A stretch of 37,716 nucleotides of DNA from a virus (Duplodnaviria; Heunggongvirae; Uroviricota; Caudoviricetes), in the IMG/VR virus record IMGVR_UViG_643692022_000005. One strand, given 5' to 3'. A model generated the notes under the pieces. The model was not told where the DNA came from, ran no database searches, and was given only the letters and a program-made list of their open reading frames with translations. Shown piece by piece: positions 5,411-37,716 of this stretch. A program made the translations under genes and the position numbers. Position 1 is the stretch's first letter, and every line of letters begins with the position of its first letter.

Positions 5411-5593
5411 GTTGCTAACGAATCATCCTGGACTTCATATGCCCCAGGCGGCTACTTCGTGGGCGTCCTGCCTGTTCGTTGTTTTAACATCTTTAAGTTG
5501 TAATTCAGTTGTGGTTTTGAATGTTGTCAACAACTTTATGTGGTTTGAACGAGTAGCCAAGGAGTGCAAGGATTATCAAAAAAAGGAGGTTGT
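5411..5593. promoter_or_regulatory. Divergent promoter/operator-like region (candidate leftward early promoter and rightward cargo promoter)
   Basis: Perfect TTGACA -35 hexamer on the minus strand (top 5525-5530) with a weak -10 about 17 bp downstream; clustered GTTGT/ACAAC motifs like those in the cI-cro intergenic region; AGGAGG RBS at 5583-5588. Confidence 0.4.
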
Positions 5594-6484
5594 ATGGAAG
5601 ACGCGCTTTACGCTTTTAATTACACACAGAACCGGGACAAGTTATTTGCTAACTTGATTAGCATCATTGATGGAATCATTGCAGATGGAGTTGTCCGTGA
5701 AGAGGAGGTTCTTTACTTAGATACATGGTTACTTGAAGCAAAGCAGATTATCAATAATGGAGTTATAAAAAGTCTATCAGCACGGGTGTCGGATATTCTT
5801 GCGGATGGAATAATCACATCAGAAGAACGTGATGACCTTAAAAATAGCCTTCTCCAAATACAGAGGGAAATTCTTGATATCCCTGAAATTGATTTTTACT
5901 CCAAGGATGTAGATGTCCATTTACTTAATGGACTATGTAAAGGATTAATTGCTGATCGGAACTTAACTCAAGAAGAAATAAGATATCTTAATTGGTGGCT
6001 TGAGCAAAATGGAGCTTTGAAGAACAACTACCCAGGAAAAAAACTTTATGCACTTGTAAAGGAAATTCTTAAAGATGGGGTTATTACTGAAGATGAGAGT
6101 TTAACTCTACATAAGGCATTAGTAGACTTCACAGGATGTGACTTGGAAAGTGGGGTGGTGGATGGTTTGGCGACCAGGCTGCCTATTGATGTAGGGGCTT
6201 CGATAGAGTTAGAGGGTAAAACCTATTGTCTTACAGGCACTTTTGTTGCAGGAAAGAGAGCCGTAGTTGAAAATTTGATTAAAAATGCTGGTGGGAACAT
6301 CAGTAGTGGAATTACTCAAAAGTTGGATTTTTTAGTAATTGGGACGCTTTCCTCCCGTGATTGGAAATTCTCAAGTCACGGAAGGAAGATCGAAAAAGCT
6401 ATATCTTATAGGGATGATAATGGTGCAAAACTTAAAATTATTTCTGAAGAAATGCTTTTCGATGCATTACCAAGTTCGCGATGA
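5594..6484 (+). CDS. Protein with four TerB-like helical repeats and a C-terminal BRCT-like domain (candidate defence/exclusion gene)
   Basis: Start at the ATG preceded by AGGAGG (the track ORF begins 30 nt earlier). Four repeats of a D-G-[VI]-[VI]-x-x-E-E helical motif; C-terminus GKTYCLTGTF...AGGNISSGITQKLDFLVIG matches the BRCT pattern of NAD-dependent ligases. AT-rich; 3-prime end overlaps the cI 3-prime end. Confidence 0.75.
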   Translation: MEDALYAFNYTQNRDKLFANLISIIDGIIADGVVREEEVLYLDTWLLEAKQIINNGVIKSLSARVSDILADGIITSEERDDLKNSLLQIQREILDIPEIDFYSKDVDVHLLNGLCKGLIADRNLTQEEIRYLNWWLEQNGALKNNYPGKKLYALVKEILKDGVITEDESLTLHKALVDFTGCDLESGVVDGLATRLPIDVGASIELEGKTYCLTGTFVAGKRAVVENLIKNAGGNISSGITQKLDFLVIGTLSSRDWKFSSHGRKIEKAISYRDDNGAKLKIISEEMLFDALPSSR

Positions 6485-7153
6485 CCAGAATACCCTACCT
6501 ATAACATGAATTCTGGCTCGTCTATCTTCAAAGGTGAGTATTTCATCTGGGTACTCATCTTTGTTGAAGCTTCTAAGAATCAAGCCACCGTCAGGTAAGT
6601 TGATAAGTATTTTAACCCTTAGCAATACACCATCTCGTACGGCATAAAGATCGCCATCACGAATAGGAACGGTTTGAGAAATATCAACGGCAACAAGATC
6701 TCCATTATTGAGAACCGGTAATAAACTGTTCCCCCATATTTTTACGATCTTGGCATTAGATGCACATACGCCAGATTTTCTCAAATCTGCTCTTCTTAAC
6801 GGAAACCAGTCAATAGCTGATTCAACTATTTCAGCCAGACATCCGTTACCTGCCGATAACTCGACATCTAAAACAGGAATGTTTACGAAAATATCGGGGT
6901 CTAATGCGGTGCTTTCTGCTTCTTTTACAACAAGATCAGGTATGGATGCGTTGTCTTCAATACCAAGTTGTAACCACTTTTGTGATACACCTAAAACTTT
7001 TGCAATTTCTTTAATTTTGCGCGGTTGTAGAGTTTCGCCATTCTCTATTTTGGCTACAGATTGTTGTGAAAGTCCAATTTTTTCAGCTAGTTGAGCTTGG
7101 CTCATGCCAGCTATCTCTCTACCTATCTTTAATCGTTCTGCCAGTGTTTTCAC
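6467..7153 (-). CDS. cI: CI-like repressor (HTH plus S24 LexA-like peptidase domain)
   Basis: N-terminal HTH (MSQAQLAEKIGLSQQSVAKIENGET) and a C-terminal S24-like autoproteolysis domain (GNSLLPVLNNGDLVAVD...); divergent from a Cro-like gene; GTG start. Confidence 0.88.
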   Translation of the reverse strand: MKTLAERLKIGREIAGMSQAQLAEKIGLSQQSVAKIENGETLQPRKIKEIAKVLGVSQKWLQLGIEDNASIPDLVVKEAESTALDPDIFVNIPVLDVELSAGNGCLAEIVESAIDWFPLRRADLRKSGVCASNAKIVKIWGNSLLPVLNNGDLVAVDISQTVPIRDGDLYAVRDGVLLRVKILINLPDGGLILRSFNKDEYPDEILTFEDRRARIHVIGRVFWSSRTW

Positions 7154-7559: not shown

Positions 7560-8111
7560 GTGGGTAAGCATCACTGGAAAGTAGAAAAACAGCCTAAGTG
7601 GTACGTGAAAGCTGTCAGAAAAACTATCGCAGCGTTGCCGGGGGGTTACGCTGAAGCAGCTGACTGGCTGGATGTAACAGAGAACGCATTATTTAACCGC
7701 CTTCGTGCCGATGGCGATCAAATTTTCCCGCTGGGATGGGCAATGATTTTACAACGTGCTGGTGGCACTCACTTCATTGCTGACGCTGTGGCGCAGTCTG
7801 CAAATGGCGTCTTTGTGTCTCTTCCTGACGTCGAGGATGTGGATAACGCCGATATTAACCAGCGCCTGCTGGAAGTCATTGAACAGATTGGCAATTATTC
7901 CAAACAGATTCGTTCGGCAATCGAAGACGGTGTGGTGGAACCGCATGAGAAGACAGCAATTAACGACGAGCTGTATCTCTCAATTTCGAAACTGCAGGAG
8001 CATGCAGCACTTGTCTACAAAATTTTTTGCATTTCAGAAAGTAATGACGCCCGCGAGTGTGCAGCTCCGGGCGCCGTGGCGTGTCGTGACTGTGGAGAAA
8101 CTAACGCATGA
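7560..8111 (+). CDS. CII-like / YdaT-family regulatory protein
   Basis: Position directly after cro. Start placed at the GTG preceded by AAGGAG at 6-nt spacing; in-frame alternative ATG at 7527. Family assignment from memory. Confidence 0.55.
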
Positions 8112-13494: not shown

Positions 13495-14241
13495 TTAATC
13501 TGGCATTATGGTAGATAATTGTGGGCTAGGTTTAACCCCGTAGGTTTCTGATATTCTTTTAACGTTGATACCTACGATTTTTCTGACAGCTCCCAACGAA
13601 AATTCTAACTCTTTAATCCCTGCGTCTTTAGAAGTGTTGTTCATATAATAACGGCATGCTTCTCGAATTGACTTGCAAACGATAAATAGAGGTGATTCAT
13701 CTGGGATTTGAGAAAGCAAAGAGGTCAAACATGTTCTTAACTCTTTGAGTGATTCGGCAACAAAACAGGGGTTTTCAAGATGATATTCTACGAACAAAGC
13801 CCCTTTATCATCCAATTCATTTATAATCTTTTTTGCCAGATTTCTTTCATCATGCTGTTGAATATATTTCAAAGCATCGAAGGTAATATTAATCGAACCT
13901 TCAAGACAGGAGCTTATAAGGCTTTCATGATCTTTTTTCCATTTTCTTAATACAGGTGCCGGATAGTCTAGCCCCTGATTCTTATCTATTAATACAGAAC
14001 AAGTAGCACACAGCCATATGCCATTGTTAATTGACTTCCTTTCTGTTTCTGATTGTGACATGTCATAGCGTGGGCCATCAGGAGATGCTGCACATATGTG
14101 AGCAGCAACTCCTGTCTTGATTGATTTATTGCCATCAATTGATGGGCCAATGGTCAATCTGGGGCATGAAGGGTTTGAACAAATGAATGCTGCCCGCTCT
14201 GCTAATTTTTTTATAGTGTCTTTAGAAAAATTATGTCGCAT
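13495..14241 (-). CDS. HNH-motif nuclease-domain protein with uncharacterised C-terminal domain (cargo gene; candidate defence)
   Basis: N-terminal HNH pattern CSNPSC ... AAHICAASPDGPRY ... NGIWLCATCSVLID; the ~150-aa C-terminal half has no motif I recognise. AT-rich, opposite strand to the surrounding late genes. Confidence 0.7.
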   Translation of the reverse strand: MRHNFSKDTIKKLAERAAFICSNPSCPRLTIGPSIDGNKSIKTGVAAHICAASPDGPRYDMSQSETERKSINNGIWLCATCSVLIDKNQGLDYPAPVLRKWKKDHESLISSCLEGSINITFDALKYIQQHDERNLAKKIINELDDKGALFVEYHLENPCFVAESLKELRTCLTSLLSQIPDESPLFIVCKSIREACRYYMNNTSKDAGIKELEFSLGAVRKIVGINVKRISETYGVKPSPQLSTIMPD

Positions 14242-17748: not shown

Positions 17749-19478
17749 GCCGGAAATCTTACCCCAACGTAAATGCTGCCAATCAGTATGCCCGGGATGT
17801 CGTGCGCGGAAAGATTGTGGCCTGCCAGTTTGTGATTCAGGCCTGCCAGCGCCATCTTGATGACCTGATGGCGGAAAAAAGTAAGTCGTTTCGTTACCGC
17901 TTCGACAAGGACTTGGCTGAACGGGCCGCCAAATTTATTCAGCTGTTGCCGCACACCAAGGGTGAGTGGGCATTCAAGAGGATGCCCATCACGCTGGAGC
18001 CGTGGCAGCTCTTTGTGATCTGCTGCGCGTTTGGCTGGGTCAATAAAGGCTCCCGGCTGCGCCGCTTCCGGGAGGTGTATACCGAAATCCCCCGTAAGAA
18101 CGGCAAATCAGCAATCTCTGCCGGTGTCGCCCTGTATTGTTTTGCCTGTGATAACGAGTTCGGCGCGGAAGTGTATTCCGGTGCCACGACGGAGAAACAG
18201 GCATGGGAAGTCTTTCGTCCGGCAAGACTGATGTGTAAACGCACACCCATGCTGACGGAAGCGTTCGGGATTGAGGTTAACGCCTCAAACATGAATCGTC
18301 CGGAGGATGGCGCGCGGTTTGAACCGCTGATCGGTAACCCCGGTGATGGTTCATCACCCCACTGTGCGGTGGTGGATGAATATCACGAGCACGCCACCGA
18401 TGCGCTTTACACCACGATGCTTACCGGGATGGGGGCGCGACGTCAGCCACTGATGTGGGCCATTACTACTGCCGGGTACAACATTGAGGGGCCGTGCTAC
18501 GACAAGCGACGGGAAGTTATCGAGATGCTCAACGGGTCGGTACCCAACGATGAACTGTTCGGGATCATCTATACCGTTGACGAAGGCGATGACTGGACCG
18601 ACCCGCAGGTGCTGGAAAAAGCTAACCCGAATATTGGCGTGTCGGTTTATCGCGAATTTTTGTTAAGTCAGCAGCAGCGTGCGAAAAATAACGCCCGTCT
18701 GGCAAACGTCTTTAAAACAAAACACCTCAATATCTGGGTGTCGGCGCGTTCGGCGTATTTCAACCTGGTGAGCTGGCAGAGCTGCGAGGATAAATCACTG
18801 ACCCTTGAGCAGTTCGAGGGGCAGCCGTGCATTCTGGCCTTTGACCTGGCGCGTAAGCTGGATATGAACAGCATGGCGCGACTTTATACCCGCGAGATTG
18901 ACGGTAAAACGCATTACTACAGTGTGGCCCCGCGTTTCTGGGTACCGTATGACACGGTGTACAGCGTCGAGAAAAATGAAGATCGACGGACAGCCGAACG
19001 CTTTCAGAAATGGGTGGAAATGGGCGTTCTGACCGTTACCGATGGTGCGGAGGTGGATTATCGCTACATCCTCGAGGAGGCCAAAGCGGCGAACAAAATC
19101 AGCCCGGTCAGTGAGTCACCCATCGACCCCTTCGGGGCGACCGGGTTGTCACATGACCTTGCTGATGAAGACCTGAACCCCATCACTATCATTCAGAACT
19201 ACACCAACATGTCCGACCCGATGAAAGAGCTGGAAGCGGCAATTGAATCGGGGCGCTTTCATCATGATGGCAATCCCATCATGACCTGGTGTATCGGCAA
19301 CGTGGTCGGCAAAACCATTCCGGGTAACGATGATGTGGTGAAGCCCGTCAAAGAGCAGGCGGAAAACAAAATCGATGGTGCAGTTGCGCTGATTATGGCG
19401 GTTGGCAGAGCCATGCTGTACGAGAAAGAAGACACGCTGTCTGACCACATTGAGTCCTATGGGATCCGCTCGCTTTAA
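17745..19478 (+). CDS. Terminase large subunit
   Basis: 577 aa with Walker-A-like GKS ([11 protein letters not shown]) and a C-terminal nuclease region; overlaps the small subunit stop. Confidence 0.88.
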
Positions 19479-27066: not shown

Positions 27067-27215
27067 CGGCTGAATACCTCACTGATCGCTTCTTTGACTG
27101 CGCCAGTTACTGGCGCATTAATCCCTTCGAATTGCTGAATATGCCGATCAGTGAAATTCCCTTGCTGGTCAGTCAGGCAAACAGGATAGAGCAGGAGAAA
27201 CGCACACATGGCTGA
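26797..27215 (+). CDS. Tail assembly chaperone, predicted -1 frameshift product
   Basis: Slipping -1 at T-TTT-TTC (27048-27054) continues into the 27033-27215 frame (...FFPPGLTAEYL...) and ends at the tape measure start. Confidence 0.5.
27048..27054 (+). other. Candidate -1 programmed ribosomal frameshift slippery heptamer (T TTT TTC)
   Basis: X-XXY-YYZ heptamer in the zero frame of the chaperone gene, 4 codons before its stop, with the -1 frame open for 54 further codons. Confidence 0.55.
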
Positions 27216-29040
27216 ATTTGAGCTTAAGGCGTTGATCACCGGTGTCGACAGGCTTTCTCCCGCGCTGTCGAAAATGCAAAAGAAAATCCGGGGATTTAAA
27301 CGCCAGGCGGAAGAAGCGTCACAGGGTGGGCTGGCGCTTGGTGGCGGACTGGCAGCGGGTCTGACGCTTTCCCTGAAATCTTATGCCGATCAGGAAAACG
27401 CCGCCACCGGGCTGAAAGTTGCCATGATGGATGCGAACGGCGAGGTCGGAAAGCGCTTTCAGGACATCAATAAACTGGCTATTGGCCTGGGTAACCAGCT
27501 ACCCGGTACAACGGCTGATTTCCAGAACATGATGCAGATGCTGGTGCGTCAGGGGATCCCGGCAGAAAACATTCTTGGCGGTGTGGGTAAAGCGACAGCT
27601 TATCTTGCGGTACAACTGAAAAAAACACCGGAAGCGGCTGCCGAGTTTGCTGCAAAGATGCAGGATGCTACCGGAACGGCGTCAGAAGACATGATGGGGC
27701 TGTTCGACACTATCCAGAAGGCGTTTTATCTGGGCGTTGACGATACCAACATGTTGTCCTTCTTCACTAAAACCAGCTCTGTTCTGAAGATGGTGAACAA
27801 GGACGGTCTTCAGGCTGCACAGAGCCTTGCCCCCATCAGCGTCATGATGGATCAGATGGGGATGAACGGGGAGTCGGCAGGTAATGCCCTGCGAAAAGTT
27901 ATCCAGTCCGGATTAAGTGTTAAGAAAATCAGGGACGTCAATAAAGTCATGGCCCGCCAGAAACTCGGGGTACAGCTCGATTTTACTGACGGCAAAGGAA
28001 GTTTTGGCGGTCTTGATAACATGTTTAAGCAACTGGCAAAGTTGCGAAAACTGACTGACGTTAAGCGAACTAATGTACTTAAGGCAATATTTGGTGATGA
28101 TGCCGAAACCATTCAGGTGGTCAATGCGCTGATCGATAAAGGAAAGGATGGTTACGATCAGATCCAGCAGAAGATGAATAAACAGGCCAGCCTGAATAAA
28201 CGTGTTCAGGCACAGCTTGGTACGCTGTCCAACCTGTGGGAGGCAATGACGGGGACCGCAACTAACGGCCTTGCAGCTATTGGCGGCGCATTTTCTGGTG
28301 ACGCTAAAAATATCACGCAATGGCTGGGGGAGTTGGGGGAGAAATTCACGAAGTTTGCGGATGAAAATCCCCGGGTTATTCGCGGCGTCGTCGGGCTTGC
28401 TGCCGGTCTTGCGATTCTGAAACTGGGATTGATGGGCGTTGGCGGTGCCATCAGTATTGTCAGCAGGATCATGTCGATGACGCCGATTGGCATGATTGCG
28501 ACGGCGATAGCCCTGGCTGCGGGATTAATTATCACTAACTGGGATGTTGTCGGACCTTATTTTAAGAAACTCTGGGAAACCATTGGTCCTTATTTTGAGG
28601 CTGGCTGGGAACTTCTGAAGAAAGTTTTTGCCTGGTCGCCGCTGGGGATGGTGATCAATAACTGGGGACCGGTTGTTAAGTGGTTTCAGGATATGTGGGA
28701 CAAGCTGAAGCCAATTATTGAGTGGTTTACCGACAGTTCCGGTGACACGGTCGATGCCATTAACTCTGCGCAGTGGGGCGCGGGTGCTTATGATGCTTAT
28801 GGGACGGGAATACCGGCGCGGGGATACACACCTTATCCGGCGGTAGATCCGGCTCAGTCAAACAACGCCTCCGATGCCACAGGCCCGAATCCCTTCATGA
28901 TTAACAAAGCTTCTGCGCCAAAAGTTGATGGTGAGATCAAGGTCTCTTTTGTGAATTCGCCTCCGGGTATGCGGGTTATGGAAACGCGATCCAGCGGTAT
29001 TGATGTCAGCCATGATGTTGGCTATACGCGGTTCAGGTAG
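27208..29040 (+). CDS. Tail tape measure protein
   Basis: 610 aa, helical N-terminal half and Gly/Ala-rich hydrophobic segment; position after the chaperones. Confidence 0.85.
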   Translation: MAEFELKALITGVDRLSPALSKMQKKIRGFKRQAEEASQGGLALGGGLAAGLTLSLKSYADQENAATGLKVAMMDANGEVGKRFQDINKLAIGLGNQLPGTTADFQNMMQMLVRQGIPAENILGGVGKATAYLAVQLKKTPEAAAEFAAKMQDATGTASEDMMGLFDTIQKAFYLGVDDTNMLSFFTKTSSVLKMVNKDGLQAAQSLAPISVMMDQMGMNGESAGNALRKVIQSGLSVKKIRDVNKVMARQKLGVQLDFTDGKGSFGGLDNMFKQLAKLRKLTDVKRTNVLKAIFGDDAETIQVVNALIDKGKDGYDQIQQKMNKQASLNKRVQAQLGTLSNLWEAMTGTATNGLAAIGGAFSGDAKNITQWLGELGEKFTKFADENPRVIRGVVGLAAGLAILKLGLMGVGGAISIVSRIMSMTPIGMIATAIALAAGLIITNWDVVGPYFKKLWETIGPYFEAGWELLKKVFAWSPLGMVINNWGPVVKWFQDMWDKLKPIIEWFTDSSGDTVDAINSAQWGAGAYDAYGTGIPARGYTPYPAVDPAQSNNASDATGPNPFMINKASAPKVDGEIKVSFVNSPPGMRVMETRSSGIDVSHDVGYTRFR

Positions 29041-29121
29041 TGTACAAAATGATTAATGTGTTTTTGTCTGGCATAATTTGGGTTTTCAACTTTAAGTAGT
29101 TAATATAATCACTCCTTACAA

Positions 29122-29634
29122 ATGATTGAAGGGATGATTAAGCGTATCTTTGTGTTTTTTATATCTGCACTTTTATCTTTTAACTTGGCAGCGGAAGAGT
29201 GTAAGTTCAGCTTTAATGAGTCAGAATTAATTTCTTCTATAGGTATTGCACCAGTTAAGCAAGAGATAGTAAAGGATGAAGGAATAACTAAGCGTCAATA
29301 TGAATTCAGGAGAGAATTGTCTTTTGAAGAAATGCTTGGCGATGATGCTGATGAAAAATATGAGCCGCAGTTTTATATATCTGTTTATAATCCATCATGT
29401 CCACAAAAGGTTATTATTTGGTTTTTCAAAGACAATAAAAATACACAAACTTTAAGTAATGAGGTCCTTGCTGGTAGAGCATTCAAGTATTTAACTGGTG
29501 TTAATGAAAGTATTTTTGAAAATAAAATGAAAAAGTTTTCAAAGGTACAGTCATTTGAATCCTTTGATGAAAGGACGGACTCTAAATTTATAAAGAGTGG
29601 TAATGTTTATTCCATTGATGTTCAACTCAGATAG
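29122..29634 (+). CDS. Hypothetical secreted protein with signal peptide (AT-rich cargo gene in the tail module)
   Basis: N-terminus MIKRIFVFFISALLSFNLAAEE looks like a Sec signal peptide with an A-x-A-type cleavage site. AT-rich, weak RBS, start ambiguous (29122 or 29134). Confidence 0.6.
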   Translation: MIEGMIKRIFVFFISALLSFNLAAEECKFSFNESELISSIGIAPVKQEIVKDEGITKRQYEFRRELSFEEMLGDDADEKYEPQFYISVYNPSCPQKVIIWFFKDNKNTQTLSNEVLAGRAFKYLTGVNESIFENKMKKFSKVQSFESFDERTDSKFIKSGNVYSIDVQLR

Positions 29635-29650
29635 TAATTGAAAATATTAG

Positions 29651-29710
29651 AACCCCGCCACATCTTCTGCGATGTAAATAACTGACAAAGCAGATTTGGC
29701 GGGTTTTTTG
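29651..29710 (+). terminator. Terminator-like structure after the secreted cargo gene
   Basis: CCCGCCA (about 29653-29659) pairs with TGGCGGG (about 29696-29702) around an inner hairpin, followed by TTTTTTG. Confidence 0.4.
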
Positions 29711-29724
29711 TATCCGGAGTTTAT

Positions 29725-31053
29725 ATGACGTGGAAAGGCAGGCTTCAGGATGCGTCATTTCGCGGCGTACCGTTTAAGGTTGAAGAAGAAAGTGCGGGAA
29801 CCGGTCGCCGTGTGGAAACACATGAATACCCGAACCGCGACAAGCCCTATACCGAAGATCTGGGAAAAGTCACTTTCCGCCCGTCCATCACAGCTTATGT
29901 GGTGGGAGATGACTGCTTTGACCAGCGCGATCGCCTGATTGACGCGCTGAATAAACCCGGTCCCGGCACGCTTGTCCATCCGACATACGGTGAGATGAAA
30001 GTCTGTGTTGACGGGGAAGTTCGGGTCAGCACATCGAAAAGTGAAGGGCGTATTGTCCGCTTTGACCTGAAGTTTGTCGAAGCAGGAGAACTTTCTTACC
30101 CCACATCAGGTGCGGCGACGGCGCAGACGCTGATGTCATCCTGTTCTGCACTGGATGACTGCATCAGTGACAGCTTCAGTGGTTTCAGTATCGATGGCGT
30201 GGCGGATTTTGTGCAGAACGACGTCGTTGGTAATGCCAGCACAATGCTTGGGTATGTTTCTGATGCGATGAAAGTGGTGGATTCTGCCGTATCGGATGCT
30301 GCCAGGCTGTTGCAGGGGGATATCTCGGTACTTCTGCCGCCACCATCGTCAGGCAAAAATTTCGTTGAGCAGGTGCAGAAAATGTGGCGTACCGGGAAAC
30401 GCCTTTATGGTAACGCCAGCGACCTGGTCACCATGATCAAAACGCTTTCCGGTGTCAGCCTCGGCAGCGATCTGCAACCGCGCGGCGTCTGGAAAACGGA
30501 CAGTAAAACCACCGCCACGGCGACGCAGCAGCGTAACGTGGTTGCCAGCATCCTTCGTACGACCGCAATCAGCGAAGCGGCGTATGCCGTCACCCGATTG
30601 CCTGCGCCAACAACTTCCGCGGTGATGCAGAATTCCGCAGTGGGGCAGGCAACAACACCTGCGCAGAGCACTGGCTGGCCTTCCGTCACGCATCCGGCAC
30701 TGAACAATGCACCGGCGGTGAAAAACACGGTTGACCTGCCGACGTGGGAAGAACTGACTGACATTCGCGACACACTGAATACGGCAATTGATAAGGAGTT
30801 GTCCCGTACAACCAGTGATGCGCTGTTTCTGGCGCTGCGCCGGGTGAAAGCAGATCTGAATGCGGATATCAACACGCGCCTTGAACAGTCTGCACGGATC
30901 ATTCAGCGCACACCGGATGAGGTTTTACCCGCACTGGTGCTGGCGGCTACCTGGTTTGATAACGCGGCGCGTGATGCGGACATTATCCGGCGTAATGCCA
31001 TTACGCATCCCGGCTTTGTGCCGGTGATCCCTCTGAAGGTACCAGTGCAATGA
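29725..31053 (+). CDS. DNA circulation protein (Mu gpN-like)
   Basis: Starts MTWKGRLQDASFRGVPF, matching the conserved N-terminus of Mu N-family proteins as I recall it; follows the tape measure in Mu order. Confidence 0.8.
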   Translation: MTWKGRLQDASFRGVPFKVEEESAGTGRRVETHEYPNRDKPYTEDLGKVTFRPSITAYVVGDDCFDQRDRLIDALNKPGPGTLVHPTYGEMKVCVDGEVRVSTSKSEGRIVRFDLKFVEAGELSYPTSGAATAQTLMSSCSALDDCISDSFSGFSIDGVADFVQNDVVGNASTMLGYVSDAMKVVDSAVSDAARLLQGDISVLLPPPSSGKNFVEQVQKMWRTGKRLYGNASDLVTMIKTLSGVSLGSDLQPRGVWKTDSKTTATATQQRNVVASILRTTAISEAAYAVTRLPAPTTSAVMQNSAVGQATTPAQSTGWPSVTHPALNNAPAVKNTVDLPTWEELTDIRDTLNTAIDKELSRTTSDALFLALRRVKADLNADINTRLEQSARIIQRTPDEVLPALVLAATWFDNAARDADIIRRNAITHPGFVPVIPLKVPVQ

Positions 31054-36567: not shown

Positions 36568-36597
36568 GGCGGCATTGCCGCCTTTGTTTTATTTTAT
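36568..36597. terminator. Bidirectional rho-independent terminator
   Basis: Hairpin GGCGGCATTGCCGCC flanked by AAAAA upstream and TTTGTTTTATTTT downstream; overlaps the stop of the convergent acyltransferase gene. Confidence 0.55.
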
Positions 36598-37716
36598 CTT
36601 GTATCTTTTTTCAATTGTATTATACAGGATAGCGGAAAGTATAATTGCTAATGTTATCGCCCCAAACTGCATCAATATAAAATATCTAGCTGATGTTTGC
36701 TCTAGGTTGATAAATTTGCTGTAAGAATTGAATGTAATGTTAAGCGATAACTGATGTACTAAATACAAACTGTAACTTATGATACCAATATTCGATATGC
36801 TTCTTTTAGAGAATATAGACGGCCTGGATGCGATAAACGCTATGAAAAATATTGATGTCGCGCAGAACATTTCGAATTCATATACTTTAAAATCACCAAA
36901 AATCGAATATAAAAAGAGTAATAGCATTACGATCCACAAAGCATATTTCAAATAATTGTTTGCAGGTTTCTTTATGTACGAAGCAATAAACCCTGTCAGG
37001 AAGTATGTCCACATTATTTGTTCGTTCTGATATCCAAGATATATAATTATCAGAGCTAAAGGTATTAAAGATATTCTTAACGGTTTAATAGCAAATGCAC
37101 AAGCAAGAAATGGAACTGCTGCATAATATTTCCATTCGTAAGGTAACGTCCATGTAACAATATTAAGGCTCCAGTCCCATATTGCACCAACCCTAATCCC
37201 ACCGCCCCAGAAACCAAATCCATAAACACTACGAATGACTGTCATTATATCATCAATAGTTTTTATTTCCCCGTATCTCTGGAACATGAAAATTGCAAAA
37301 ACTATTGTAGAAACAACAATGTATGCAGGAAGTAATCTATAAATCCTTTTTTGGAAAAAAGAAATATCGAAAATTCCCTTTTTTATAGTGGCTGAAAATA
37401 AAAAACCTGTTAAGCAAAAGAATATGGATACTCCAAACGCGCCCATTTTTTCAAATGCGTACGCTGGCTGAATATTCATATATGGTGATTTTAATCCTAT
37501 AGCAGCAATTACAGTGTATGAGTGGTTAACGAAAACTAATAGACACGCAACCCCCCTTAAGCCCTCTAAACATAAGTCATTGTGGCTTCCAATAGGGGAT
37601 ATATCAACTATCTTATTAATAAGAAAACAAATAAATGTTGCGAATAAAATAAAAGATGATGCATATATGGTATTGTGAACACTAAGATATGGTAATAAAG
37701 TAGCAAATGTATCCAT
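36589..37716 (-). CDS. Acyltransferase-3 family membrane protein (candidate O-antigen acetyltransferase); 5-prime end at or beyond the window edge
   Basis: 375 aa in the window, about 10 hydrophobic segments, AT-rich; resembles OafA/Oac-type acyltransferases from memory. The ATG is the last three bases of the window, so the true start may lie outside. Confidence 0.7.
   Translation of the reverse strand: MDTFATLLPYLSVHNTIYASSFILFATFICFLINKIVDISPIGSHNDLCLEGLRGVACLLVFVNHSYTVIAAIGLKSPYMNIQPAYAFEKMGAFGVSIFFCLTGFLFSATIKKGIFDISFFQKRIYRLLPAYIVVSTIVFAIFMFQRYGEIKTIDDIMTVIRSVYGFGFWGGGIRVGAIWDWSLNIVTWTLPYEWKYYAAVPFLACAFAIKPLRISLIPLALIIIYLGYQNEQIMWTYFLTGFIASYIKKPANNYLKYALWIVMLLLFLYSIFGDFKVYEFEMFCATSIFFIAFIASRPSIFSKRSISNIGIISYSLYLVHQLSLNITFNSYSKFINLEQTSARYFILMQFGAITLAIILSAILYNTIEKRYKIK

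Follow-up and report, generated by a model that had tools for sequence, protein, structure and literature searches.

The window analysed here (37,716 nucleotides (nt), IMG/VR virus record IMGVR_UViG_643692022_000005) is the genome of an SfV-like temperate phage, with an integrase, a cI-like repressor, a head module, a Mu-type contractile tail and, at one end, an Oac-like acyltransferase. Within its tail module, between the genes for the tape-measure protein (TMP) and the Mu-N-like DNA-circulation protein (N), lies an open reading frame (ORF) of 170 amino acids (aa) that belongs to the family phrog_8976 and that is, with high probability, a dispensable accessory cassette encoding an exported protein. 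The main yield of our analysis is that the TMP-N junction forms a common and compact cassette slot, and that the small envelope proteins encoded there are directly testable as exclusion factors. A role of the 170-aa protein in superinfection exclusion is proposed tentatively.

The phrog_8976 gene and its empty counterparts

The initial annotation described the ORF as lying in an AT-rich stretch between tape-measure and DNA-circulation genes, and the coordinates, the Pfam matches of the flanking genes and the contrast in GC content all agree with that description. The GC content is 0.31-0.35 over positions 29000-29750 and 0.50-0.59 on either side; for the ORF itself it is 0.318 (0.27 at third codon positions, GC3), against 0.52-0.56 (GC3 0.57-0.59) for the flanking genes. 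The TMP stop and the N start lie 684 nt from each other, and nearly all of this interval had been included in the stretch originally singled out (29041-29720). The region is organized as follows:

27208..29040, plus strand: TMP gene (610 aa), left border of the slot; Pfam PhageMin_Tail (E 3.7e-27), PHROG tape-measure families
29041..29121, plus strand: AT-rich leader 5' of the ORF, with imperfect promoter-like elements only
29122..29634, plus strand: ORF of 170 aa between the tape-measure and DNA-circulation genes; member of phrog_8976
29122..29193, plus strand: predicted Sec-type (signal peptidase I) signal peptide, residues 1-24, cut after A24 (NLAA↓EEC)
29194..29631, plus strand: predicted mature domain of ~146 aa, acidic (isoelectric point ~5), alpha/beta, with two invariant cysteines (C27, C93)
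29654..29709, plus strand: intrinsic-terminator-like hairpin (7-bp G+C outer stem plus inner stem) followed by T6 (RNAfold)
29714..29724, plus strand: conserved CCGGAG Shine-Dalgarno sequence and spacer of the N gene, from the alignment of filled and empty junctions
29725..31053, plus strand: N gene (Mu-N-like DNA-circulation/baseplate-hub gene), right border of the slot; Pfam DNA_circ_N (E 9e-35), phrog_184 baseplate hub

The consensus N-terminus of the family (MR/MIR) suggests that translation starts at the ATG at 29134 rather than at 29122, yielding a protein of 166 aa. The same 170-aa sequence has been deposited for Escherichia fergusonii under the name 'hypothetical protein from phage origin; putative exported protein', and the insert also occurs in phage SKA5, where its product is labelled a hypothetical protein. 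The leader is kept in SKA5 and in the copies found in IMG/VR. Compared with the SKA5 copy, the ratio of non-synonymous to synonymous divergence of the ORF is 0.18 (dS 0.168, dN 0.031), versus 0.10 for TMP and 0.08 for N. The ORF is thus under purifying selection, yet changes faster than the two flanking genes.

The initial annotation had suggested looking for the insert in related phages, and had considered that the product might turn out to be a conserved virion component. In SfV, SfII, SfI and vB_EcoM-689R6, both flanks are 96.5-98% identical to those of the window, the insert is lacking and only 60 nt separate the TMP stop from the N start; the gene is also absent from SfIV. Since SfV, SfII and SfI are isolated phages with near-identical flanks, the gene is dispensable for building virions, and the product is not a conserved virion component. 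Among 5426 complete E. coli genomes, 1091 carried this N allele, and thus the slot is present in about a fifth of them; 531 of these 1091 genomes had an empty SfV-type junction and 85 had this insert. In IMG/VR we sampled the 80 loci closest to the window (N 98-99% identical), with 77 readable junctions. No cargo was present in 43 of these, 15 contained this gene and 13 a 176-aa protein with a transmembrane (TM) anchor (phrog_5485), whereas four contained a TM-anchored protein with a tRNA_anti-like oligonucleotide/oligosaccharide-binding (OB) fold on the opposite strand and two were disrupted by an insertion sequence (IS). Filled junctions had a TMP of 610 aa ending in GYTRFR and empty junctions one of 611 aa ending in GYTRFGR, indicating that the last ~60 nt of the TMP gene travel with the cassette.

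The invariant position in the tail module, between TMP and the hub protein, could be taken to mean that the product is a structural or assembly component of the tail, whose signal-peptide-like N-terminus is in fact a membrane or assembly helix. This is highly improbable and a structural role is largely refuted: the gene is missing from SfV, SfII, SfI, vB_EcoM-689R6 and the 43 empty junctions, where the tail genes are near-identical, and unrelated proteins replace it at the same site, one of them encoded on the opposite strand. In addition, the signal-peptidase site is conserved, and tail assembly takes place in the cytoplasm.

The term moron, in the sense of Juhala and Hendrix, designates an extra gene that separates genes found side by side in related phages (PMC3594210). 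The gene lies between such neighbours, deviates in composition and is followed by a terminator. These are three of the features by which morons are recognized, the others being an own promoter and expression from the repressed prophage (PMC3594210), and in kind the TMP-N cassette gene is a tail-operon moron.

Alternative cassettes at the TMP-N junction

According to the initial annotation the junction is normally tight in Mu-type tail clusters, a view that did not survive comparison. A species-level survey, in which each species in GTDB was represented by a single genome, provided 36 analysable loci related to this N gene. The gap between the two genes was 3-85 nt in 16 of them, and the other 20 held 270-2900 nt of cargo, mostly AT-rich and of around 14 unrelated types. 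The envelope-directed cargo included phrog_8976, a second signal-peptide family (phrog_5586, for instance in phage vB_EcoM-720R4) and other proteins with a signal peptide or a TM helix. Other junctions contained a bPH_1 protein, a ClpP-like protein, a RepL-like protein or a P22-type antirepressor with an S24 repressor. On the basis of a signal peptide or TM anchor (a heuristic assignment), 9 of the ~14 types were envelope-directed, corresponding to a one-sided binomial p of 0.008 against an assumed baseline of 30%, a rough figure of our own that was not measured. Representative cassettes are:

Locus L060, 3909-4439: phrog_5485 cassette, 176-aa TM-anchored protein, AT-rich
Locus L078, 3944-4390, minus strand: phrog_8545 OB-fold cassette, TM-anchored, AT-rich
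Locus L009, 2381-2869: phrog_5586 cassette, signal-peptide protein of 150-162 aa, AT-rich

Alternative cassettes were also found in loci L014 (phrog_8545-type), L015, L040 and L047. All these cassettes reside in near-identical prophages, and PADLOC gave no match for any of them. The phrog_5485 insert is nearly of the same length as the phrog_8976 insert. The OB-fold cassette matches phrog_8545 (E 1.5e-49), which is annotated as 'superinfection exclusion Sie-like', and because it is oriented opposite to the tail genes it needs a promoter of its own. In a PADLOC scan of ten cargo proteins no convincing match was obtained, one protein having marginal matches with an E of 3e-4 at best. When phrog_8976 was compared with the second signal-peptide family using hhalign, only the signal peptides aligned; since the profile-profile alignment is confined to that segment, the cassette families are not divergent alleles of one gene.

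The filled and empty states diverge from the last ~60 nt of the TMP gene up to ~15 nt before the N start; on the right side, homology with empty junctions is seen again from about position 29704. A search for transposon-like ends and target duplications at the junction returned only short chance repeats, and a search for structured RNA gave no Rfam match. Considering that the cassette borders fall within the conserved ends of TMP and N and are devoid of transposon-like ends, the data point to a swapping of cassettes by homologous recombination in those conserved ends. A search of the available literature library by accession, phage name and concept yielded no study of this gene or of the TMP-N slot as a hot spot.

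Some loci showed further rearrangements. In L118 and L122, two close relatives from IMG/VR, the TMP gene or the junction is broken by IS elements (transposase ORFs), and these are probably defective prophages. In Lonsdalea the slot has grown to 2.4-2.9 kb (L045 2171-4438 and L046 1665-4425) and encodes a signal-peptide protein together with a P22-type antirepressor (P22_AR_N/C). The slot of L046 also contains an S24/HTH repressor on the opposite strand. Together these genes form a small regulatory module inside a tail operon.

The family itself is small and bound to one place. A word-indexed search of 5.8 billion proteins recovered 19 clusters of phrog_8976 relatives, and an exhaustive profile search of 1.84 billion representatives recovered 13 clusters, one of which was a repeat-protein false positive, leaving 12 real ones. 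(P0027, a protein of 1100 aa listed by the latter search, was discarded as repeat-driven, given its look of cadherin-type repeats.) Every homologue locus that we read, representing about eleven lineages, had the order PhageMin_Tail gene, homologue, DNA_circ_N gene. These loci stem from E. coli/E. fergusonii, Kosakonia, Cronobacter, Atlantibacter, the isolated Pantoea phage AH07 and four metagenomic lineages, including the weakest detectable relatives. Identity among homologues spans from 94% down to ~41%, beyond which only profile matches remain. No relatives outside the TMP-N phage junction, or in bacterial chromosomes proper, were found in the profile search and the loci read. In all these loci the GC content of the gene is 7-20 points below that of its flanks. 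The pairwise divergence of the gene correlates with that of TMP and N (Spearman 0.57 and 0.52, respectively, with one clear exception), the gene diverging faster. The initial annotation portrayed the gene as an insertion; it is not a sporadic one, the family being strictly tied to the TMP-N junction across deep divergence. As it keeps this position and has remained AT-rich in all loci read, the gene is an old, optional resident of the tail module rather than a recent one-off acquisition.

The carriers include avian pathogenic (APEC) and uropathogenic (UPEC) E. coli and Salmonella isolates, as well as plant-associated or environmental hosts, namely Kosakonia, Atlantibacter and the host of Pantoea phage AH07 (tree leaf). 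A copy with 94% protein identity is present at 18893-19402 of CP077666.1, listed in PLSDB as a non-mobilizable 'plasmid' of 38,926 bp from Salmonella enterica. Its size matches that of the phage genome, and the record is therefore probably no plasmid but the genome of a phage that was closed into a circle during assembly.

Expression, export and possible role of the product

A Sec-type signal peptide had been attributed to the ORF from the start, and this assignment is borne out by the family. The N-termini of 21 homologues were tabulated with a heuristic (n/h/c features and the -3/-1 rule) and not with a dedicated predictor. They have a K/R-containing n-region and a hydrophobic core of at least 12 residues (12-residue Kyte-Doolittle mean 2.1-3.2), and in 20 of the 21 small residues occupy positions -3 and -1, as (V/A/S/I/L)-x-(A/S), two residues ahead of an invariant cysteine. 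These features persist despite considerable drift in sequence. Because they are conserved across the family, we infer that the product is a substrate of Sec and signal peptidase I and is released into the periplasm. There was no match to the lipobox [LVI][ASTVI][GAS]C with the cysteine at +1, the conserved cysteine being the third residue of the predicted mature protein (A↓E-E/Q-C). The mature part is mostly acidic across homologues and contains exactly two invariant cysteines, C27 and C93, which are presumed to form a disulfide.

The AlphaFold2 model, made with an alignment of 17 sequences, has a mean predicted local distance difference test score (pLDDT) of 86.7, with values above 90 over the mature domain. 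Its N-terminal helix (pLDDT ~55) is detached from the domain and followed by a disordered segment at residues 19-25. The model shows no beta-barrel. The initial remark that the protein lacks a recognizable motif also stands, as scans against Pfam, NCBIfam and PADLOC (up to E 10) gave no match, and the sole significant PHROG match was to phrog_8976 itself (E 1e-103), whose function is not annotated. A profile search of the PDB sequences produced only noise (best E 0.0018 over 45 residues of a mitochondrial protein) and no fold relative was found in the PDB. BFVD provided one match, A0A8S5RVB8 of a gut siphovirus (180 aa, E 3e-6, TM score 0.64), which was set aside; the label 'ABC transporter periplasmic binding protein' that it bears was probably assigned automatically. 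Because the homology and fold tests were negative, the 170-aa protein falls outside every annotated exclusion, defence, lipoprotein or inhibitor family. Given that it has no relative of solved structure, its structure and target would constitute new information.

With respect to transcription, the insert had been credited with a terminator of its own. A strong hairpin is certainly present in the window, formed by the stem CCCGCCA (29654-29660)/TGGCGGG (29697-29703) and followed by T6 at 29704-29709 (-22.7 kcal/mol, z = -3.86 versus shuffles); its loop is expanded to ~36 nt and includes an inner stem. In other lineages a near-invariant hairpin CCCGC-YYCG-GCGGG with T-run is located 3' of the gene and is followed by the CCGGAG Shine-Dalgarno sequence of N. 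This element is better conserved than the surrounding coding sequence, the proteins of these lineages being only 40-60% identical. The combination of hairpin, T-run and CCGGAG upstream of N is found at:

Window, 29654-29724
Locus L004, 8527-8549
Loci L006, L018, L051, L052, L054, L055 and L057

Empty junctions have their own, different small hairpin and T-run in the 60-nt spacer before N. This suggests that a terminator belongs to the junction itself, and its presence does not prove that a transcription unit was imported. In the late operon the hairpin could act as a terminator for non-antiterminated transcripts or as an RNA stability element. Late transcription in lambdoid phages relies on antiterminated transcripts that pass terminators, and the phage studied here encodes a Q-type antiterminator. 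By analogy, late transcripts would read through the junction terminator and transcripts from ordinary promoters would stop there. Since the gene lies on the strand of the late operon it is at least co-transcribed with the tail genes, and expression together with these genes is the only mode that is guaranteed by the anatomy.

Taken together, these data give good support to an optional cassette gene that is located in a recombination hot spot between TMP and N of an SfV-type, Mu-like contractile tail module and is transcribed at least with the tail genes; the hairpin would stop unmodified polymerase before N. The product would be cleaved by signal peptidase to give a soluble, acidic alpha/beta protein of ~16 kDa in the periplasm, probably with a disulfide, that works in the cell envelope for the benefit of the phage itself. 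There it might disturb the genome delivery of incoming phages at the moment that the tail tip and the ejected proteins cross the periplasm. Such a mechanism of the superinfection-exclusion type is a possibility that we favour only tentatively and by analogy. It is favoured because the family is found only beside genes of the injection machinery, because the slot is enriched for envelope proteins, and because one alternative cassette belongs to the 'Sie-like' PHROG and requires independent transcription on account of its opposite orientation. The initial annotation had already listed periplasmic exclusion among its options, and as a best guess from position and neighbours the idea can be kept.

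Several observations weigh against it. The PHROG label 'Sie-like' is an annotation only. No homology of phrog_8976 to annotated exclusion or defence families was detected in PHROGs and PADLOC, nor to the neighbouring cassette families beyond the signal peptide. Both exclusion and lysogenic conversion require expression in the prophage state, and a scan for consensus promoters (16-18 nt spacing) upstream of the gene did not reveal any on the plus strand in the window or in Kosakonia, the consensus scans overall being negative or at chance level. In Cronobacter, Pantoea phage AH07 and two metagenomic lineages the gene starts only 15-18 nt past the TMP stop. Considering the absence of a consensus promoter and the short distance in these distant lineages, expression in the prophage state is unsupported. 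Furthermore, 19 (32%) of the 60 best cargo-bearing E. coli chromosomes had a second SfV-type N gene, compared to ~21% expected under independence, a count that ignores the order of acquisition and the relatedness of strains. These 19 chromosomes hold two or three SfV-type N copies (e.g. NZ_CP136018.1 and NZ_CM173879.1), so that carriers are commonly polylysogenic for this type of phage, and the lack of depletion of co-resident prophages argues against a strong exclusion of the own type.

By eye, two imperfect promoter-like elements can be discerned in the leader: TGgCATAAT at 29069-29077, which resembles an extended -10 element, and TTTTCA (29083-29088) separated by a short 15-nt spacer from a perfect TATAAT (29104-29109). 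At the 3' end of the TMP gene in L006 (~7940-7960), L054 (~2280-2300) and L057 (~2125-2145), where the cargo abuts TMP, the conserved C-terminal TMP motif G-Y-N-R/Q-F is encoded as GGnTAYAAT, which puts TATAAT/TACAAT ~40 nt upstream of the cargo start. This could be an embedded promoter or a by-product of coding.

An alternative role is that of a periplasmic helper for the phage's own lytic cycle, made and exported late together with the tail proteins and without action in the prophage state, which might tune the timing of lysis, spare the progeny from lysing cells and debris, or neutralize a periplasmic host factor. The gene has the strand and position of a member of the late tail operon, and in the four lineages mentioned it is spaced as tightly as operon genes usually are, with a Shine-Dalgarno sequence of its own. 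Its strictly kept place in the tail module, even among deeply diverged lineages, the missing consensus promoter and the undiminished number of co-resident SfV-type prophages also fit. We nevertheless regard such a role as rather unlikely, because many phages with this tail, isolated ones among them, do without the gene, and the slot also accommodates a gene on the opposite strand, which cannot belong to the late operon, as well as a family annotated as Sie-like. Moreover, the lysis cassette is located elsewhere (~14.5-15.7 kb in the window), and AT-richness in every lineage is typical of accessory rather than core late genes. If the product is such a helper after all, it would suggest an unrecognized envelope step in the lytic cycle of temperate phages with Mu-type tails.

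Lysogenic conversion, or virulence, was put forward first in the initial annotation. The secreted protein would then be a conversion or host-fitness factor that alters the dealings of the lysogen with animal hosts or environmental stress, comparable to Bor and Lom of phage lambda. An AT-rich cargo with a predicted exported product in a temperate phage is what one would expect for such a factor, and the APEC, UPEC and Salmonella carriers and the presence of a classic conversion gene in the same prophage (the Oac-like O-acetyltransferase, 36589-37716) are in line with this. The idea has become less attractive and in our opinion is unlikely, as the family is confined to one phage junction, with none of its relatives in bacterial chromosomes proper, and as the plant-associated and environmental hosts (Pantoea phage AH07, Kosakonia, Atlantibacter) imply a role that is not specific to animal virulence. 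In addition, the protein matches no annotated family and no consensus promoter of its own was found.

Periplasmic immunity and inhibitor proteins are typically small and provided with a signal peptide. The product might belong to this class and protect against external envelope toxins, such as effectors of the type VI secretion system (T6SS), colicins or lysozymes, and its size, predicted periplasmic location, cysteine pair of the disulfide type and fast evolution fit in. No structural similarity was found to solved periplasmic inhibitor and immunity folds (Ivy, PliC/MliC, T6SS immunity proteins), and we consider this option distinctly improbable.

Among known systems, gp15 of phage HK97 is the nearest to the exclusion role proposed above, as its gene, the prototype moron, adjoins the one for the tape measure and the protein keeps HK97-like phages from injecting their genomes (PMC3594210). 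HK97 gene 15 is likewise a compositionally deviant small extra gene in the tail operon, dispensable for virions and with an envelope product. The latter, however, is a short protein of the inner membrane that has YebO homologues in bacteria, and its gene has a defined promoter and a defined terminator, whereas the protein described here is predicted to be a cleaved, soluble periplasmic domain of ~146 aa and no bacterial homologues of it were found. The phrog_8545 proteins (Pfam tRNA_anti-like, OB-fold) share the same slot with near-identical flanks (L078, L014), are AT-rich and envelope-directed, but are unrelated in sequence, TM-anchored and uncleaved, and their genes lie on the other strand, with a promoter side of their own. 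SieA of phage P22 blocks the ejection conduit through the periplasm and inner membrane (PMC10883804). Together with Imm and Sp of T4 and Ltp of TP-J34, which are also phage-encoded envelope proteins that halt DNA delivery after adsorption, it can serve as a model for the proposed mechanism. The genes of all these proteins lie outside tail modules, and the products are membrane proteins or lipoproteins. No homology to them was found, and the resemblance is functional speculation only. Bor and Lom of lambda, Cor of phi80 and N15 and Llp of T5 are the exported products of accessory genes in or beside the tail genes as well, but their targets are known (serum resistance, FhuA) and they are either lipoproteins or beta-barrels of the outer membrane; the protein studied here has neither a lipobox nor a beta-barrel. 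As to the slot, the antiviral hot spots of P2/P4-like elements, as cited in PMC11364771 (Rousset et al. 2022), are described there as fixed positions at which unrelated accessory or defence cassettes alternate. The TMP-N slot similarly is a fixed site between conserved phage genes with cassettes alternating among close relatives, albeit in another phage group, at another position and mostly with small envelope proteins as cargo.

If the cassettes indeed are exclusion factors, they constitute a compact and minable set of small envelope proteins that govern phage entry into common Enterobacterales, with a bearing on prophage ecology and the host range in phage therapy. A bolder version, that the TMP-N junction is a dedicated slot for interchangeable envelope exclusion cassettes and that phrog_8976 is a soluble periplasmic blocker with a new fold, directed at genome delivery by contractile-tailed phages, we hold to be doubtful. 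If true, it would represent a type of exclusion factor that is undescribed for Gram-negative temperate myophages and that has been linked to the genes of the injection machinery throughout evolution.

Other accessory genes in the window

Apart from the cassette described above, three AT-rich accessory genes are present in the window:

5564-6484, plus strand: protein of 306 aa with a C-terminal BRCT domain
13495-14241, minus strand: ORF of 248 aa between the DUF968/antiterminator region and the lysis cassette
36589-37716, minus strand: Acyl_transf_3 protein of 375 aa at the prophage end (GC 0.32-0.34); the ORF touches the end of the window

The 248-aa ORF has no Pfam match. Its N-terminal ~130 residues resemble the PADLOC candidate defence protein PDC-M68A (E 7.5e-27) and HNH endonuclease effectors of the type found in cyclic-oligonucleotide-based antiphage signalling systems (CBASS; E 5e-21), and it is possibly a prophage-borne defence nuclease. 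A moron of SfIV has been reported at a matching position (PMC3851460). The BRCT domain of the 306-aa protein was recognized by Pfam with an E of 1.4e-6; the protein belongs to phrog_3989, whose function is not annotated, and weakly resembles the PADLOC candidate PDC-S48 (E 2.7e-7). Its gene is an accessory gene that adjoins the immunity region, with the cI-like repressor at 6467-7153 on the minus strand. The 375-aa protein matches Acyl_transf_3 with an E of 1.2e-24 and is annotated in PHROG as O-acetyltransferase/O-antigen acetylase. O-acetyltransferases are the classic serotype-converting cargo of SfV-type phages.

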